Position numbers and translations under genes: made by a program. DNA of 40,308 nt from Betaproteobacteria bacterium. Its GTDB lineage: Bacteria; Pseudomonadota; Gammaproteobacteria; Burkholderiales; Casimicrobiaceae. The notes beneath the pieces are model-generated. The model worked only from the letters and a program-made list of their open reading frames with translations. It did not search any database and was not told the DNA's origin. Below are positions 27,641 to 32,957 of this stretch, one piece after another. Location: NCBI GenBank assembly GCA_003153335.1, contig PLYG01000275.1, positions 12,917 through 53,224 on the forward strand. Direction: 5' to 3'. Numbering within the stretch: position 1 is the stretch's first letter; the number at the start of each line of letters is the position of its first letter.

Positions 27641-27681
27641 CTTTCCCTCAAGCCCATCGACTTCGTCTTTGGGCTTTTTTT
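27641..27681 (+). terminator. Conserved terminator module, copy T1
   Basis: CTTTCCCTCAAGCCCATCGACTTCGTCTTTGGGCTTTTTTT. The stem is AAGCCCA/TGGGCTT, the loop is conserved and a U tract follows. Confidence 0.75.
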
Positions 27682-27835
27682 CATGCCCTCGGCGGCTAAC
27701 GGTCCCCCAGTCCGTCTCGCCCGACAATGCCCCTGAAACTTCGCACTCGCTGGCGGATTCGTCATCGGACCACGGCTTACCCTGTCGCGCACCACATTCC
27801 ATGGGCAATGCTTTCTTTCTTCCATGGAGACCAAC

Positions 27836-28333
27836 ATGAGTGCGAACAAGCTCTACGACGCAGCCAAGCATCTGGTGCCCTCACTGCGTTTTGCCCCAAC
27901 TGACCCATCGCTCTACACTAGCTTTTCAGTGGTCTATCACCCGACCGGGATCGTGTGTTTTTTCTCGCACTATCGAATCGGTTCCCTGCTGCTCACCCGC
28001 GCCACCCCCGACGAAGACGGGACGTGGCACATCGAAACCGGGTACAAAAGGCACGTCGATGACCTGTTCTTCTTGGGCTTCGAGGATTTCGGCGAGTTGT
28101 TCATGCATCCGGACCCGCAGTCGTTTGCTTTCGAGTATTACCGCGAAGGCATCCGCAAGTTCCTGCGCGCTCTCGACGCAGCCGCGCGCTTTGAAACGCA
28201 GCGCATTCCCGAAGAGTTCTGCGCCGTTCACGGTCAGAACAATGGACGCGTCATCATCCGCCTGACCACAGCGCTCCGGCATCGCATCGCTGTTCCTACC
28301 GCCGGGACCTACCCCACCCTGTATCCTTTCTGA
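27836..28333 (+). CDS. Hypothetical protein
   Basis: GGAG lies 6 nt before ATG 27836. An alternative start lies at 27824. Confidence 0.6.
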   Translation: MSANKLYDAAKHLVPSLRFAPTDPSLYTSFSVVYHPTGIVCFFSHYRIGSLLLTRATPDEDGTWHIETGYKRHVDDLFFLGFEDFGELFMHPDPQSFAFEYYREGIRKFLRALDAAARFETQRIPEEFCAVHGQNNGRVIIRLTTALRHRIAVPTAGTYPTLYPF

Positions 28334-28346
28334 CTGGAGCAACCCA

Positions 28347-28736
28347 ATGAACACCGCTGCAAACTGGTTCATCCAGAATAAGCTGCAACGGGCCCAGTCG
28401 GCCTTCACCACGGCAATGAGCAGAATGCGTCGTGCCCGGAACTTGCGTGAGTTGATGCAGGGCCGCAACGTCCACGTCGAGTCCTTCGTCCACTGTCTGG
28501 TCCGTTCTGAAGAATCCCGCGCAGATCGCCTCCGCGAAGAACTGGCAACCACGATGGTCGAAGCCCACCTCAAGGAAATTGAAACCCTGCCACTGGACCA
28601 ACGCCAAGCAAAGATTGGCGAATTCATGCGGCGCGACTGGTGTTTCCTGCGGGGCAATGAACCGCGTCTTTACCGCCGCATCGAAGTCGAAAGCGCCCGA
28701 CTCACGCGCGACCTGCCACGACCGCCGTTGCCCTGA
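28347..28736 (+). CDS. Hypothetical protein, helical and Arg/Glu-rich
   Basis: RBS CTGGAG before ATG 28347. 129 aa. Confidence 0.6.
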   Translation: MNTAANWFIQNKLQRAQSAFTTAMSRMRRARNLRELMQGRNVHVESFVHCLVRSEESRADRLREELATTMVEAHLKEIETLPLDQRQAKIGEFMRRDWCFLRGNEPRLYRRIEVESARLTRDLPRPPLP

Positions 28737-28764
28737 ACCAAGATTCCCTCCGGTTTTTCTCTCT

Positions 28765-28803
28765 CTCCCCTCAAGCCCATCGACTTCGTCTTTGGGCTTT
28801 TTT
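28765..28803 (+). terminator. Conserved terminator module, copy T2
   Basis: CTCCCCTCAAGCCCATCGACTTCGTCTTTGGGCTTTTTT. Confidence 0.75.
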
Positions 28804-28828
28804 CATGGGGGATTCCACGTTTTGCAAA

Positions 28829-28857
28829 TTGCGTATATGCCCATAATAGGGGATAAT
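28829..28857 (+). promoter_or_regulatory. Promoter-operator copy P7
   Basis: TTGCGT (28829-28834), a 17-nt spacer, then GATAAT (28852-28857). ATGCCC-ataata-GGGGAT lies at 28837-28854. Confidence 0.55.
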
Positions 28858-28874
28858 GACCGTGACGGGTAATT

Positions 28875-28943
28875 GGCCTCGGAGAAGAATTGGTTACTTC
28901 CGGCTCGAAAGAGCTAGCGGTGGGTTCGAACCCCATCGAGGCA
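28875..28943 (+). ncRNA. tRNA-like cloverleaf lacking an anticodon loop (GAAA tetraloop instead)
   Basis: Hand fold. Acceptor: GCCTCG (28876-28881) pairs with CGAGGC (28937-28942). D arm: GAAG-aattggtta-CTTC. Third arm: GGCTC-GAAA-GAGCT. T arm: GTGGG-TTCGAAC-CCCAT. It starts about 11 nt after the predicted P7 transcription start. Confidence 0.45.
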
Positions 28944-29020
28944 GCGGGGGCACCCGGCAATTGCCCGTTGCCGAATTGAATGGAACCAAAGCCTCACGAC
29001 GTTGGAGTTGAAATAGAGTG

Positions 29021-29359
29021 ATGCTGGGCCGTTCCAAAGACAAGCTGCGAGATGGTGGTGTCATGGCGAGTAAGGTGATCGCTGAGGAAGTCGATGACGA
29101 CGGTGCCAAAATGGTCAGCATCACGCTGCATTGCGGCGACCGTCCATCGCGTACGTGGGGCAAGTTTGCAACCGAGGCCCTCACCATCGCCTGTATGACC
29201 GGTCGCGCAATGAGAGTTGAACTCAACGACTGGGTGTGGTCGCTCGATACCCGCCAGTTGAAGTCGGGCATCACCCTTGCCGAACGTGGGCGCGAACTGG
29301 CCGACAAATGGCGCAGAGACGTAGCTTCGAATACAGCAAAGGAACGTAAGCATGGCTGA
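29021..29359 (+). CDS. Hypothetical small protein, first gene of the DUF5131 operon
   Basis: The ORF starts at ATG 29021, with an alternative start at 29063 after GGTGG. Its stop overlaps the start of the next gene. Confidence 0.55.
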   Translation: MLGRSKDKLRDGGVMASKVIAEEVDDDGAKMVSITLHCGDRPSRTWGKFATEALTIACMTGRAMRVELNDWVWSLDTRQLKSGITLAERGRELADKWRRDVASNTAKERKHG

Positions 29360-30548
29360 TGGCACTGGCATCGAGTGGACCGATGCAACATGGAATCCCG
29401 TGACAGGCTGCACCTTGTGGTCCGAAGGCTGCCGCCATTGCTATGCGAAATTTCAGGCATGGCCGCGTCTTGCCGCCTCACCGCAAACCGTCTACTTCGG
29501 GCGCCCCTTCGAGAACGTGGCTGTCCATGATGTGCGCCTCGATCAGCCGTTGCGCTGGACCCGGCCACGTCGGATTTTCGTGAATTCCCTGAGCGACCTC
29601 TTTCATCAGGACGTGCCCTTCGAGTTCATCGACAAGGTCTTCGCTGTCATGGCCATGACCCCGCACCACACTTATCAGATTCTGACCAAGCGGGCCAAGC
29701 GGATGCACCAGTACCTGACCGCGCGCCGGGGAGAGGGCAATACCCAAGACACGACCGCAGAATGTGTCGGCACGATCTATGCACGGCCGGGCCACTTCAT
29801 GCTGAACCTCATCGGGCCCGTCCCGCGCGCCAAACTGCTCGACGGCAGAACGCTGCCCGCGTGGCCCCTGCCCAACGTATGGCTGGGCGTGTCGGTCGAG
29901 GATCAGGACGCGGCTGATGAGCGGATCGGGTTCCTGCTCCAGTCGCCAGCCGCGATCCACTGGATCAGTGCCGAACCGCTGCTGCGGCCGCTCGACATTC
30001 GCCCCTTTCTGGCCCACGACTACAGCGAGTGGCAGCCCACCGGCGAACCGTGTGCGGTCTGTGGCGTCTACACGAACGGCATGCACCACCCGTACGCAGT
30101 TGGCCTCGACTGGGTGGTCGTCGGCGGCGAATCCGGTACCAAGGCCCGCCCCATGCATCCGGAGTGGGCCCGCAGCTTGCGCGACCAATGCACCGCCGCC
30201 GACGTGCCGTTTCTGTTCAAGCAATGGGGCGAATGGTCGCCGATCTCGCAGATCGCGGACAGCGATGGCTACTACGATCCGAAATATGGTAGCGTCAAAC
30301 GTGATGAGTATGACGAGCGCCCACCCAAGAAGGCTGTGGCCAGCACCGTGCTGCAGCTCGACGGCCGGCAGGAATTCGCCTTTCCCGTGGGCGCGATGAC
30401 CTGCTTCAAGATCGGCAAACGAACCTCAGGCCGCTTGCTCGACGACCGGACGTGGGATGAGTATCCGACTGCACCGGAGACAGAATCGGTGCTGGTTGAT
30501 GGCGCGCCGGAGGCCATCCGACCGGCCGCCGAGGAAACCTCCGCATGA
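29352..30548 (+). CDS. DUF5131 / phage Gp37-Gp68 family protein
   Basis: IEWTDATWNPVTGCTLWSEGCRHCYA, RRIFVNSLSDLFH, WLGVSVEDQ, DWVVVGGESG and VPFLFKQWGEW together form the family signature. Confidence 0.9.
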   Translation: MADGTGIEWTDATWNPVTGCTLWSEGCRHCYAKFQAWPRLAASPQTVYFGRPFENVAVHDVRLDQPLRWTRPRRIFVNSLSDLFHQDVPFEFIDKVFAVMAMTPHHTYQILTKRAKRMHQYLTARRGEGNTQDTTAECVGTIYARPGHFMLNLIGPVPRAKLLDGRTLPAWPLPNVWLGVSVEDQDAADERIGFLLQSPAAIHWISAEPLLRPLDIRPFLAHDYSEWQPTGEPCAVCGVYTNGMHHPYAVGLDWVVVGGESGTKARPMHPEWARSLRDQCTAADVPFLFKQWGEWSPISQIADSDGYYDPKYGSVKRDEYDERPPKKAVASTVLQLDGRQEFAFPVGAMTCFKIGKRTSGRLLDDRTWDEYPTAPETESVLVDGAPEAIRPAAEETSA

Positions 30549-31363
30549 GCAAGACCGAATGGCACGACCGCCTGCAGAATAAAGGCGGTCCACCCGAATT
30601 GGCTGATCTACTGGACCAAGGCACACCCGAGCCCGCCTCGTCCGCCAAATTGGAGGCCATCCCCACACGCCTGTATCACGGTACTGCCGGCCGCTGGCTG
30701 GACACCATCCTGCAACAAGGCTTGCTGCCCCGCGTCAAACTGGAACAATCCAATGGCCGCAACAGCGAGGGCAATTGGGAGCACTCGGTACCCAGCCACC
30801 CGGAGCTTGTCTACCTGACCAACGCCTACCCGCTGCATTTTACCGGGGCATCGCTGCTGGAGGATGAGACCAATGGCCTGATCGTTGAAATCGATACGAC
30901 GAAGCTCGATCCCGACCGGTTCCGGCCCGACGAAGATTTTCTGGAGCAGGCCACACGTGGGCATGATGATCTTGATCCGAACATGCCGCTGGCCGTGCGC
31001 AATCGGCATTACCGGGATCGGATCGCGGACTACGAGGCCCTGCCCTCGCTCCAGCATCTGGGCACGGTGGGATACGCAGGTTCGATCCCCTTTGCTGCCA
31101 TCGCACGGATCATGGTCGTGGAGACGAGCGCCATCGGCCGCTTGATCATGTTGGGGTTCGATCCTGTGATTTCGCTCGCCAACTACCGCCACGCCGGTTC
31201 CTTCTACCGCTCTGGCACGCGGTGGATGTTTGGCGACACCGATCTGATCTACGATCTTCCGGCTCGCTTGAAGCCCGCCCTCTCGCGGGAGGGGATCACG
31301 ACCTACGTTCGCGACGAGCTGCTCAAGTTCCGGGCCGCTGCGAAGACTACCCGCCAGAGATAG
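30545..31363 (+). CDS. Hypothetical protein with KptA/Tpt1-like LYHGT...GLLP motif (possible ADP-ribosyltransferase-fold enzyme)
   Basis: The ATG overlaps the upstream stop. RLYHGTAGRWLDTILQQGLLP...LVYLTN parallels FLYHGTASRFLDEIKKQGL...YVHLS of E. coli KptA, as I recall that sequence. Confidence 0.5.
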   Translation: MSKTEWHDRLQNKGGPPELADLLDQGTPEPASSAKLEAIPTRLYHGTAGRWLDTILQQGLLPRVKLEQSNGRNSEGNWEHSVPSHPELVYLTNAYPLHFTGASLLEDETNGLIVEIDTTKLDPDRFRPDEDFLEQATRGHDDLDPNMPLAVRNRHYRDRIADYEALPSLQHLGTVGYAGSIPFAAIARIMVVETSAIGRLIMLGFDPVISLANYRHAGSFYRSGTRWMFGDTDLIYDLPARLKPALSREGITTYVRDELLKFRAAAKTTRQR

Positions 31364-31366
31364 GCT

Positions 31367-31750
31367 ATGTCCGTCCCGTCCGACAAAACCTCGGCCCTCC
31401 CGCTTGCGACCCCGGTCCCCCGCGATCTGGTGGTGCGCGTCGGTCGATTGGCTGGTTTCGCCATCTACTTCGTAGGCGACCGCGCCTTTTACAAGCAGCG
31501 CCCCGGTGTCCCTAGTCTCGTCCCGGGCGCTTCGGTTGCGGTTGGCGAGGAGGTGGAGGTCGAGTTCTCTTTGCCGCTGGTGATGCACCGCATCCTGATC
31601 CGGGCGCCCAAGTTGGTGCTGCTGCAAGACGGCACCCAGTATTTGTGTGCACTCAAACCAGCCCAGCAGCCGGCGCGCGGCAACTCCATCGTGGAGGCCG
31701 TCTTCCGCGCTTTCGCTGACGCCAAGGCCAACGCGCGGGCGGTGGCGTGA
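31367..31750 (+). CDS. Hypothetical protein
   Basis: 127-aa ORF starting 3 nt after the upstream stop. Its first codons coincide with a copy of the 20-mer motif. Confidence 0.55.
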   Translation: MSVPSDKTSALPLATPVPRDLVVRVGRLAGFAIYFVGDRAFYKQRPGVPSLVPGASVAVGEEVEVEFSLPLVMHRILIRAPKLVLLQDGTQYLCALKPAQQPARGNSIVEAVFRAFADAKANARAVA

Positions 31751-31865
31751 ACATTCGTGGCCTCGGAACCGAATTCGTTAGAATCCGGCCACCGCCGCGC
31801 GCTTACGCGGCGCCGCGATCCATCACAGAGGCAAGGCCCAACCCTTTCCTCTCTCGGAGTTACCT

Positions 31866-32468
31866 ATGAAACTCGAAATAACTGTTCCCGACGGCAAATG
31901 CGGCAAGTGGGCCGTCGAAACGTTTGAAATCACCGAGCGCGACGCCTCGTATTCCCGCGTCCGAGAAGTTCTGCGGCCCGGTTCGATGGTCTCCCCCGGC
32001 ATCTACAAGCGCCTGATGCGTGGCAATACGGTCGTGATGAGCAACACCCAGATGGAGGTCCGGACCAATCGACCGGTCATTCACGCTGCTACCGGTCGCG
32101 TCCTGATCAATGGACTCGGGCTTGGGATGGTGCTGACTGCCATCCTGCAAAAGGACTGCGTGCACGAAGTCTGGGTGATCGAAAGCAGTGTCGAAGTGAT
32201 CCAGTTGGTCGGCCCCAGCTTCACCGACCATCGGGTGCGCATCATCCACGCCGACGCCATGACCTATGTGCCTCCCAAGGGCGTTCGCTTCGATGTGGTG
32301 TGGCACGACATTTGGGACGGCATTTCCGCAGCCAATCTCGACGAGATGATCGTGCTTCATCGCCGCTACGCCCAACGCACGCGCTGGCAAGCATCGTGGG
32401 CTCGCGCGGAATGTGAAGAACTGCGCCGCCGGGATCGCAAGTTCGAGAGCAACCTGCTGTACGGTTGA
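31866..32468 (+). CDS. Class I SAM-dependent methyltransferase-like protein
   Basis: RVLINGLGLGMV is a GxGxG motif I, followed by VWVIESS, IIHADA and FDVVWHDIW. No DPPY or PCQ motifs typical of DNA methyltransferases are seen. Confidence 0.6.
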   Translation: MKLEITVPDGKCGKWAVETFEITERDASYSRVREVLRPGSMVSPGIYKRLMRGNTVVMSNTQMEVRTNRPVIHAATGRVLINGLGLGMVLTAILQKDCVHEVWVIESSVEVIQLVGPSFTDHRVRIIHADAMTYVPPKGVRFDVVWHDIWDGISAANLDEMIVLHRRYAQRTRWQASWARAECEELRRRDRKFESNLLYG

Positions 32469-32502
32469 TCGACTTACGGCCATCGCGCCTCTTCTTTTCC
32501 AT

Positions 32503-32540
32503 CCCCCTCAAGCCCATCGACTTCGTCTGTGGGCTTTTTT
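32503..32540 (+). terminator. Conserved terminator module, copy T3
   Basis: CCCCCTCAAGCCCATCGACTTCGTCTGTGGGCTTTTTT. Confidence 0.75.
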
Positions 32541-32890
32541 CATGGCGTTTGTACGATGAGCGTCCGTGGTTCCCCAACGCGCAACCGCTAAAACTCACGG
32601 ATTCCACTGTTTTTCTGGGCAAACTGATGGTCTTTTGCCTGGTTACACCGGTTGCCTCTCCGCGAATGGGTGTTTCCGCCGGGAAATTGCTCGGCACGTA
32701 CCCAACTCCCGTGGGCGAGACAAATGCCCGTGTTGATGGGCGCTGCCCCCAAGCGCCACCCCTGCGCCACTATTCGGTCCCACCCTCGCGCGCCGATGAT
32801 GAGGAGGTCGGGCTGGTCATTTCTTACTCAATCAACCCGTGATCCTCCGCCGGCCACATCCGCACGTGGGTTCGGAACGCCCCCTCCAAG

Positions 32891-32925
32891 TTATCCGGTT
32901 ATTTTTCCACAGAAGCTGTGGATAA
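32891..32925. promoter_or_regulatory. Convergent DnaA-box-like pair
   Basis: TTTTCCACA (32903-32911) and TGTGGATAA (32917-32925, reverse complement of TTATCCACA) form the palindrome CCACAG-aag-CTGTGG. TTATCCGGT lies at 32891. Confidence 0.4.
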
Positions 32926-32957
32926 CTGCTGGCGACCGGCGGTTGCGTCGGTTGTAA

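Follow-up and report, generated by a model that had tools for sequence, protein, structure and literature searches.

What is a tRNA-shaped sequence without an anticodon loop doing in front of a protein-coding operon? The question is raised by a stretch of betaproteobacterial DNA of 40,308 nucleotides (nt; contig PLYG01000275.1, a metagenome contig, ENA ERZ27254241), hereafter called the window, to which all positions refer unless another contig is named. A tRNA-like cloverleaf lies on its + strand at 28876-28943, ahead of an orphan open reading frame (ORF113), a gene for a DUF5131 protein and a gene for a predicted ADP-ribosyltransferase (ART)-fold protein, and was recognised from the sequence, by a descriptor scan and by folding. 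It is a real, non-random and non-coding tRNA-like fold in the sequence that has no anticodon loop, and it is positioned directly downstream of a conserved, putative promoter. We assign a probability of roughly 0.38 to the reading that it would act as a tRNA mimic at an mRNA 5' end, handled by the enzymes of tRNA maturation. Contigs and loci fetched for comparison carry L-numbers and protein homologues carry P-numbers.

The cloverleaf has four helices in normal tRNA order, and 20 of its 20 base pairs (bp) are standard, two being G-U. The acceptor stem comprises 6 bp (GCCTCG at 28876-28881 with CGAGGC at 28937-28942) and is followed by G28882 and A28883 at positions 8-9 and by a D arm at 28884-28900 (GAAG-AATTGGTTA-CTTC), whose loop contains GG and has equivalents of A14, G18, G19 and A21. 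A single base, C28901, separates the D arm from a third arm at 28902-28915 (GGCTC-GAAA-GAGCT), which is a 5-bp stem with one G-T pair and a GAAA cap. After a 4-nt variable region (AGCG, 28916-28919) comes the T arm at 28920-28936 (GTGGG-TTCGAAC-CCCAT), which has a canonical loop (T54 T55 C56 G57 A58 A59 C60, closing pair G53-C61). A28943 is unpaired and GCG comes next, hence CCA is not encoded. The earlier note on this DNA, made from the sequence alone, had described these elements and the missing CCA; all were found at the positions that it gave, and its reading of the sequence was correct.

With respect to tRNA features, the T arm (G53 T54 T55 C56 R57 A58 C61) and the D loop are both of tRNA type. 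The third arm has the 5-bp stem of an anticodon arm, but its GAAA loop is 4 nt rather than 7 nt in length. Other departures from tRNA are an acceptor of 6 bp rather than 7 (G28875 and A28943 are unpaired), a G instead of U at position 8, and an A/G mismatch at the equivalent of the 15-48 pair. The cloverleaf is clearly tRNA-derived or tRNA-mimicking.

Chance does not readily produce such a fold. The descriptor used for the scan specified an acceptor of 6 bp, GG in the D arm, a stem of 4-5 bp closed by a 4-nt loop, a variable region of 4-5 nt and a T stem of 5 bp whose loop reads TTCRANY. Its sole match on either strand of the window is 28876-28942, and there were no matches on either strand of 300 first-order Markov simulations of the window (approximately 24 Mb in total). 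Folding with RNAfold, a check that the earlier note had proposed, favours the cloverleaf in all but one detail: at -24.5 kcal/mol it lies 0.8 kcal/mol above the minimum free energy (MFE) structure (-25.3 kcal/mol), and the sole difference between the two is a shift in D-arm register, which is common when unmodified tRNAs are folded. Coding scores are negative for the ORFs that overlap the cloverleaf, whether on the opposite strand or in another frame; a coding sequence on either strand was rejected on these grounds, and the stretch is therefore non-coding.

The cloverleaf is not a tRNA gene, and it is recognised neither by ARAGORN nor by Rfam. ARAGORN reports no tRNA and no transfer-messenger RNA (tmRNA) genes in the whole window, which rules out a tmRNA, and Rfam gives no matches at the gathering threshold. 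A canonical tRNA is ruled out by these finders together with the 4-nt GAAA loop, the 6-bp acceptor, G8 and the absence of an encoded CCA. When the Rfam limit is relaxed to E<=10, the best match is tRNA-Sec (15.7 bits, E 1.6; the gathering score is 47), in an alignment that deletes the anticodon arm and places the GAAA arm as a long variable arm. Weak minus-strand matches to BjrC68 and to GNAS-AS1_4 were judged to be due to chance; the former reaches 15.3 bits, where the gathering score is 39, and lacks a terminator U-run.

The putative promoter is of the sigma-70 type and lies at 28829-28857 (+), with a -35 element TTGCGT at 28829-28834, a 17-nt spacer and a -10 element GATAAT at 28852-28857. 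The -10 element is unchanged in L281, a near-identical contig, though neighbouring bases vary, and the more distant L282 has TTGTAT-17-TATAAT at the homologous position. A consensus scanner did not call this promoter because its -35 element matches the consensus at just 3 of 6 bases. Transcription would be expected to start near 28863-28865, approximately 12 nt before the cloverleaf, in agreement with the 11 nt or so that the earlier note had predicted. Upstream of the promoter, a conserved terminator-like hairpin with a T-run (28765-28806, +), which belongs to repeat family D1 (see below), ends the preceding cassette. The inferred start itself coincides with a cluster of differences: 28862-28871 shows five transitions in 10 nt relative to L281, a local divergence of 36% compared with 1-4% elsewhere.

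The sequence on either side of the cloverleaf can form competing structures. In the MFE structure of 28850-28990 (RNAfold), a doubtful 14-bp basal stem (28862-28875 with 28958-28971, +) encloses both the cloverleaf and a small hairpin (CGGG-GGCA-CCCG, 28945-28956, +) that forms a 3'-strand bulge between acceptor and basal stem; the small hairpin is identical in L281 and thus uninformative. The basal stem is unsupported by L281, where its 5' strand carries five transitions in 14 nt, of which three keep and two break pairs, and its 3' strand is unchanged. In the L281 MFE structure the stem is lost, and a third alternative, a 9-bp hairpin (28940-28948 with 28964-28972), forms instead and would sequester the acceptor's 3' strand. 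The earlier note had described a separate hairpin at 28955-28973 (CGGCAA-N7-TTGCCG, +); the sequence is present as described, but this hairpin competes with the predicted basal stem, the two being mutually exclusive. No T-run follows it, and it is therefore not an intrinsic terminator.

A long stem of this kind invites comparison with Y RNAs, in which case the stem would be a Ro60/Rsr site and the cloverleaf a tRNA-like effector domain as in Yrn1 of Deinococcus radiodurans. The predicted architecture, with its flank-formed stem around, successively, the D arm, a shortened "anticodon" arm and the T arm, does resemble Yrn1 as described. However, the stem is not kept in L281, no TROVE/Rsr protein is found among the 55 window ORFs scanned against Pfam (an Rsr gene elsewhere in the host genome would lie outside it), and Rfam gives no Y-RNA match even at E<=10. 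In addition, the motif GNCGAAN0-1G (as defined in PMC4201824) is absent from both strands of 28850-29020. The Y-RNA-like reading is largely refuted by these results, and what likelihood it retains is minimal.

L281, a JGI contig, is collinear with the window at 98.3% identity and carries the cloverleaf. Across the 68 nt there is a single change, A28912G, which converts a U-A pair to U-G and keeps the pairing. The flanks contain 10 changes in the upstream 152 nt and two in the downstream 77 nt, a distribution that hints at constraint on the cloverleaf.

More distant relatives have the operon and lack the cloverleaf. L282-L284, found via P0123 (a homologue of the 272-amino-acid [aa] ART-fold protein with 61% identity), are syntenic with the window over at least six genes at approximately 65% nucleotide identity. 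They have the same terminator repeat and a homologous promoter, and this promoter abuts the DUF5131 start codon. A single-sequence covariance model of the cloverleaf (R1), run with filters off, found a tRNA-like element nowhere in L282-L284, and ORF113 is also absent from L282. In L282 the -10 element TATAAT (within 2142-2153 of that contig) ends just 3 nt before the annotated DUF5131 ATG, which implies either a leaderless mRNA or a mis-called start.

The wider searches agree. In 160 DUF5131 loci (80 from IMG/VR and 80 from GTDB), R1 and the descriptor matched only ordinary tRNAs, located at prophage ends. None of five fetched contexts of ART homologues (L282, L285 and L330-L332) has a tRNA-like element; DUF5131 is present in just one of the five, L282, and absent on L285, L330, L331 and L332/L333. 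Among relatives of the DUF5131 protein in a set of 5.8 billion proteins, identity falls from 100% to 53% or less with no intermediates. BLAST searches of phages and plasmids detected no related locus: the DUF5131 query returned distant DUF5131 genes (60-80% identity), and the cloverleaf itself returned matches of 19-24 nt only. The neighbouring ORFs have no relatives in IMG/VR.

On these comparisons, the cloverleaf is not a feature of DUF5131 operons. The earlier note had treated it as part of the leader of the DUF5131 operon as such, a claim that fails on the homologous leaders of L282-L284 and the 160 DUF5131 loci, whose lack of the fold the note itself had named as refuting. The cloverleaf and ORF113 (approximately 28858-29351, about 490 bp) instead form a lineage-specific module that was inserted between a pre-existing promoter and DUF5131, or that was lost in L282.

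ORF113 (29021-29359, +) is the companion of the cloverleaf in both copies, the window and L281. It is probably a real gene because it has coding-like codon usage (a coding score of +0.28 in frame versus -0.74 and -0.64 out of frame) and a stop codon that overlaps the DUF5131 start (ATGGCTGA). Its product is an orphan: in searches of 5.8 billion clustered proteins and 1.84 billion representatives, the sole relative is a 98% copy (P0001) on L281. The AlphaFold2 (AF2) model is of low confidence (predicted local distance difference test [pLDDT] score of 64), and a fold search with it gave no significant match.

The interpretation in the earlier note is partly supported, and the three roles that it had suggested (processing signal, decoy and remnant) all stay in contention. 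According to the preferred reading, that of a tRNA mimic at the mRNA 5' end, the cloverleaf would be a tRNA-derived module in which the features recognised by shape, namely the stacked acceptor and T arms and the elbow formed by the D and T loops, are preserved. Its anticodon arm has shrunk to a 5-bp helix with a GAAA tetraloop, and the ability to decode would have gone with it. The module would have arrived with ORF113 as an insertion of approximately 490 bp between the existing promoter and DUF5131, and would therefore be transcribed as the first 80 nt or so of the operon mRNA. The nascent 5' end would fold into the cloverleaf, and the host enzymes of tRNA processing would treat it much like a pre-tRNA. 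A cut by RNase P at G28875/G28876 would leave an mRNA with a compact, nuclease-resistant, tRNA-like 5' cap, and a second cut 3' of A28943 would instead release a stable RNA of approximately 68 nt and create a new mRNA 5' end. With either outcome, the cloverleaf would fix the 5' end and the stability of the ORF113-DUF5131-ART transcript. We infer the transcription start, folding in vivo, recognition by RNase P and the effect on expression from the sequence. There is precedent for the cleavage: bacterial RNase P cuts a non-tRNA mimic with a tRNA-like acceptor/T module, the YrlA RNA of Mycobacterium smegmatis (PMC4201824). Independent contigs with a like design (L252, L327, L223 and the L214 family, described below) also support this reading.

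Several findings weigh on the other side. The 6-bp acceptor, G8 and the unencoded CCA are departures from tRNA, and a 6/5 acceptor/T stack with no CCA is sub-optimal for processing by RNase P and RNase Z. The basal stem, if formed, would pair the 5' leader and hinder RNase P. The z-score of the 68-mer relative to shuffled sequences is modest (-1.68). The conservation contrast with the L281 flanks is non-significant, substitutions being few, and five of the 10 upstream changes fall in one 14-nt patch. The covariation sought by the earlier note could be examined in two near-identical copies only, and no pair is changed on both sides. Finally, L282 runs the same operon from the same promoter with no cloverleaf, so the element is dispensable for the operon.

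Pattern scans for homologues in IMG/VR and the JGI metagenomes returned mostly ordinary tRNAs (tRNA-Phe and tRNAs with long variable arms) and no sequence homologue; absence there is weak evidence, as coverage of the metagenomes has gaps (L281's JGI contig fits the pattern yet was not returned). The scans did yield independent cloverleaves in which the anticodon arm is cut to a 2-5-bp stem with a 4-nt loop. These include L252 (2525-2594, - strand; GCGC-GAAA-GCGT), which has a 7-bp acceptor and lies 19 nt upstream of a 111-aa ORF; L327 (4410-4475; ACCTG-GAAC-CAGGT); and L223 (3801-3869, - strand; CCGAT-AGAA-ATCGG), which lies in a phage tRNA array and is called "tRNA-???" by ARAGORN. A family on five contigs (L214, L232, L235, L251 and L272; CTA-GAAA-TAG) shows solely pair-preserving differences, and further truncated-arm cloverleaves occur on L177 (1659-1721), L260 and L270, and on L206. 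All are intergenic and in the same orientation as the flanking ORFs, on unrelated phage or metagenome contigs. The scans demanded a GNRA-type loop at a set spacing, and the loop is thus ascertained; paired stems and complete cloverleaves were not demanded. This collection suggests that the truncated-arm design recurs, and each case could be an independent decay product.

If the recurrence is taken at face value, the cloverleaf could be one of an unrecognised class of RNAs in phages and mobile elements, tRNA mimics lying between co-oriented genes, in which a short tetraloop-capped helix replaces the anticodon arm (candidate members: L252, L327, L223, the five-contig L214 family and L177/L260/L270). 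Such RNAs might be excised by RNase P and go on to act on proteins that recognise tRNAs (host defence enzymes directed at tRNA, for example) by binding, titrating or recruiting them; another option is that they might serve as tRNA-type punctuation of polycistronic transcripts. We regard membership in such a class as quite improbable.

The same comparisons bear on the opposite possibility, that the cloverleaf is a non-functional remnant. A tRNA gene, possibly of phage type with a long variable arm, would have been captured together with ORF113 by illegitimate recombination, would have had its anticodon loop or whole anticodon arm deleted, and would persist as a young, tolerated pseudogene. The 6-bp acceptor, G8, the A15/G48 mismatch and the missing CCA are consistent with decay, as is the tRNA-Sec alignment with its deleted anticodon arm and its use of the GAAA arm as a variable arm. 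Of the 676 tRNAs that ARAGORN calls in the fetched loci, those most similar to the cloverleaf belong to phages; they share its D loop (AATTGGYTA) and have long variable arms capped by GAAA (cf. L081), and the cloverleaf may have been derived from such a phage tRNA by losing the whole anticodon arm. It is also restricted to one lineage, being present on two 98%-identical contigs and absent from the syntenic relative and from the other DUF5131 and ART contexts, and no covariation is seen in its two copies. However, the four helices are perfectly paired, a stable tetraloop caps the truncated arm, and the sole substitution preserves pairing; a perfectly paired stem with a C(GAAA)G closure would not be the usual outcome if a 7-nt loop decayed at random. 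Cloverleaves with truncated arms are seen repeatedly on unrelated contigs, and the five-contig family has pair-preserving changes only. A structure of approximately 25 kcal/mol directly behind a promoter would, furthermore, be unlikely to be neutral for expression. We consider a remnant to be a serious possibility, if on balance an unlikely one.

The DUF5131 (Gp37/Gp68) protein is encoded at 29352-30548 (+; PF07505, 1.1e-93) by the first conserved gene of the operon. In L281, a 4-nt deletion at the position corresponding to window 29877-29880 shifts the DUF5131 reading frame, and there are five non-synonymous changes compared with three synonymous; the L281 gene may be decaying, or this may be an assembly error. 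The 272-aa protein, encoded at 30545-31363 (+) and translationally coupled to DUF5131, is the one that the earlier note had called KptA-like and had tentatively tied to the cloverleaf through the action of that family on tRNA. Its scores are far below the cut-offs for that family (12.3 bits against PF01885, cut-off 26; 19 against NCBIfam NF002014, cut-off 239), and the matches each span approximately 25 residues with one H-G-T motif only.

A profile of 16 homologues of the 272-aa protein matches DarT1 (8baq; E 3.5e-4) better than Tpt1 (approximately 0.03). The AF2 model (pLDDT 85; predicted TM-score [pTM] 0.80) finds pertussis toxin S1 (2.5e-5), DarT1 (4.4e-4) and cholera/LT toxins in Foldseek, with Tpt1 appearing from rank 24 (2.5e-3); the TM-scores of these matches are low (0.3-0.44). 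H45, Y90 and E115, a motif of the H...Y...E type, are invariant across the 16 homologues. The protein is of the ADP-ribosyltransferase fold, closer to DarT1 by profile and closer to pertussis toxin S1 by fold, and membership of Tpt1/KptA was rejected. With sub-threshold scores and five homologue contexts that contain no tRNA-like element, the proposed KptA/Tpt1 connection is unsupported, and nothing observed connects the ART-fold protein with the cloverleaf RNA. The ART family itself (30545-31363; P0123-P0137; L282 3260-4039) is small and unannotated, with invariant LYHGT...R...NW...YLT...E(I/V)D...PDED motifs. Two related elements show it in translational coupling with DUF5131, and elsewhere it stands alone among small ORFs on phage- or mobile-type contigs.

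A partner would be required if the cloverleaf were a trans-acting tRNA mimic, that is, a small RNA cut out of the transcript to bind a protein whose recognition feature is the elbow or the acceptor of a tRNA. Such an RNA could act on a host defence enzyme that targets tRNA, as its decoy or sponge, or it could assist ORF113, the ART-fold protein or DUF5131 as a cofactor. The determinants of tRNA shape are kept and the anticodon is gone, so that the RNA could neither decode nor be attacked at the anticodon loop. The cargo of the element is of a defence or counter-defence type (TIR, ART-fold protein, methyltransferase, RadC and topoisomerase), the constant companion ORF113 is an orphan protein, and protein-binding bacterial tRNA mimics have precedent in YrlA/Yrn1 (PMC4201824). 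However, no partner was identified, ORF113 has no recognisable fold, and ART and DUF5131 homologues elsewhere occur with no tRNA-like RNA. Release would require two cleavages of a non-ideal substrate. Anticodon nucleases are a well-known class of tRNA-directed defence enzymes, and a decoy with no anticodon loop cannot shield against them. A trans-acting mimic is unlikely on this evidence.

Mobile elements commonly carry tRNA-gene fragments at att sites, and the cloverleaf could in principle act at the DNA level, either as a tRNA-gene-derived att or recombination site or as a structured single-strand DNA signal of a conjugative element. The surroundings are of a suitable kind: no phage structural genes were found among the window ORFs scanned, which include a topoisomerase, RadC, helix-turn-helix (HTH) regulators, TnpB, a metallophosphatase, a HATPase_c_3 protein and a cpYpsA SLOG protein, and the window resembles the accessory or cassette regions of plasmids, integrative and conjugative elements (ICEs) or similar elements. 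An integrase, however, is absent from the 55 ORFs scanned. Both tRNA halves are present rather than merely a 3' fragment, neither half has a second copy in the 40 kb with up to three mismatches, and the location is inside a cassette, between promoter and gene. A DNA-level role is very improbable.

Other features of the window were observed in the course of this analysis. Repeat family D1 comprises eight copies of an approximately 42-nt hairpin with a T-run (CCCCTCAAGCCCATCGACTTCGTCTTTGGGCTTTTTT) and a conserved 13-nt loop, which separate + strand cassettes (at 27642, 28765, 32502, 34050, 35696, 36377, 37123 and 38444, spanning 27642-38485). D1 is also conserved at the homologous place in L282 (2037-2085) despite an identity of approximately 65%, and seems to combine the role of a terminator with that of a cassette boundary or recombination module. 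Iteron-like 14-bp tandem repeats (CTTGCACTAAGCGCATTGCAC and variants) at 39801-39971 and 32966-33000 may mark a replication origin or protein-binding array. A lower-GC island at 11900-18100 (GC 0.53-0.55 compared with approximately 0.60) encodes a TIR-domain protein (12853-13515, -), a trypsin-like peptidase-SLT fusion (13813-14979, -) and 596- and 301-aa proteins of no assigned family, and its cargo is defence-island-like. A TnpB/OrfB_IS605-type protein with a Cas12f-like TNB domain is encoded at 1376-2614.

The cloverleaf is an orphan, present on two near-identical contigs and with no demonstrated tie to the neighbouring genes. Were the fold to be used, it would correspond, on a bacterial mobile element, to the eukaryotic tRNA-like processing modules, and mobile elements would in this way hijack host tRNA maturation, either to shape the 5' end of an mRNA or to obtain a mimic that does not decode. 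Much of the conflict between bacterial immunity and phages or plasmids is fought over tRNAs, and an RNA of tRNA shape that offers no anticodon to attack would therefore be a plausible counter-measure. If it is a remnant, it would be a clean case of tRNA-gene capture and decay within a cassette array. Either way, the proposed links to DUF5131 and to KptA/Tpt1 are corrected as unsupported.

Among known systems, tmRNA likewise has an acceptor/T-arm module with no anticodon and occurs in bacteria and mobile elements. It differs in having a tag reading frame, pseudoknots, the G3-U70 alanine identity pair (the 3-70 pair of the cloverleaf is C-G) and an encoded CCA. The mascRNA and MEN-beta tRNA-like structures are eukaryotic and are located at the 3' ends of long non-coding RNAs; RNase P and RNase Z have been shown to cleave them, and they receive a CCA tail. 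Like the cloverleaf, they combine D, T and acceptor arms with an anticodon arm that is cut down and cannot decode, they are embedded in a longer transcript, and their CCA is not encoded; the cloverleaf differs in its position at the 5' end of a putative bacterial mobile-element mRNA and in that its processing is putative. In the engineered "tRNA scaffold", another stem replaces the anticodon arm and the remaining tRNA gives folding, processing and nuclease resistance to a recombinant RNA. That scaffold, in contrast to the cloverleaf, is artificial, its acceptor has all 7 bp, and it ends up as a free RNA.

Irregular, non-translating tRNA-like genes occur on mobile elements and near toxin-antitoxin loci (allo-tRNA-like genes; PMC5389517). 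Like the cloverleaf, these and the Bacillus cereus tRNA-Other are non-canonical tRNA-derived cloverleaves on mobile or accessory DNA that probably have no part in translation, but they keep a 7-nt anticodon loop and have altered acceptor/T lengths of 8/4 or 9/3, whereas the cloverleaf is a near-canonical 6/5 with no such loop. YrlA and Yrn1 are bacterial non-coding tRNA mimics with D and T arms and no free CCA end (PMC4201824). YrlA has a circularly permuted layout, in which the T arm comes first, then a closed acceptor stem-loop and then the D arm; it is encoded beside rsr and carries GNCGAAN0-1G (PMC4201824), whereas the cloverleaf runs in the order acceptor, D, short arm, T, with no rsr neighbour and no motif. 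As points of likeness, Yrn1 has a 5-bp "anticodon" stem with a loop shortened to 6 nt, and the ends of the RNA lie within a long stem (PMC4201824). The cloverleaf fails the defining tests of tRNA, tmRNA and YrlA and is a variant of tRNA-like structural modules; judged by analogy, its nearest counterparts in working would be the embedded elements of the mascRNA type and the tRNA-like domains of bacterial Y RNAs and tmRNA.

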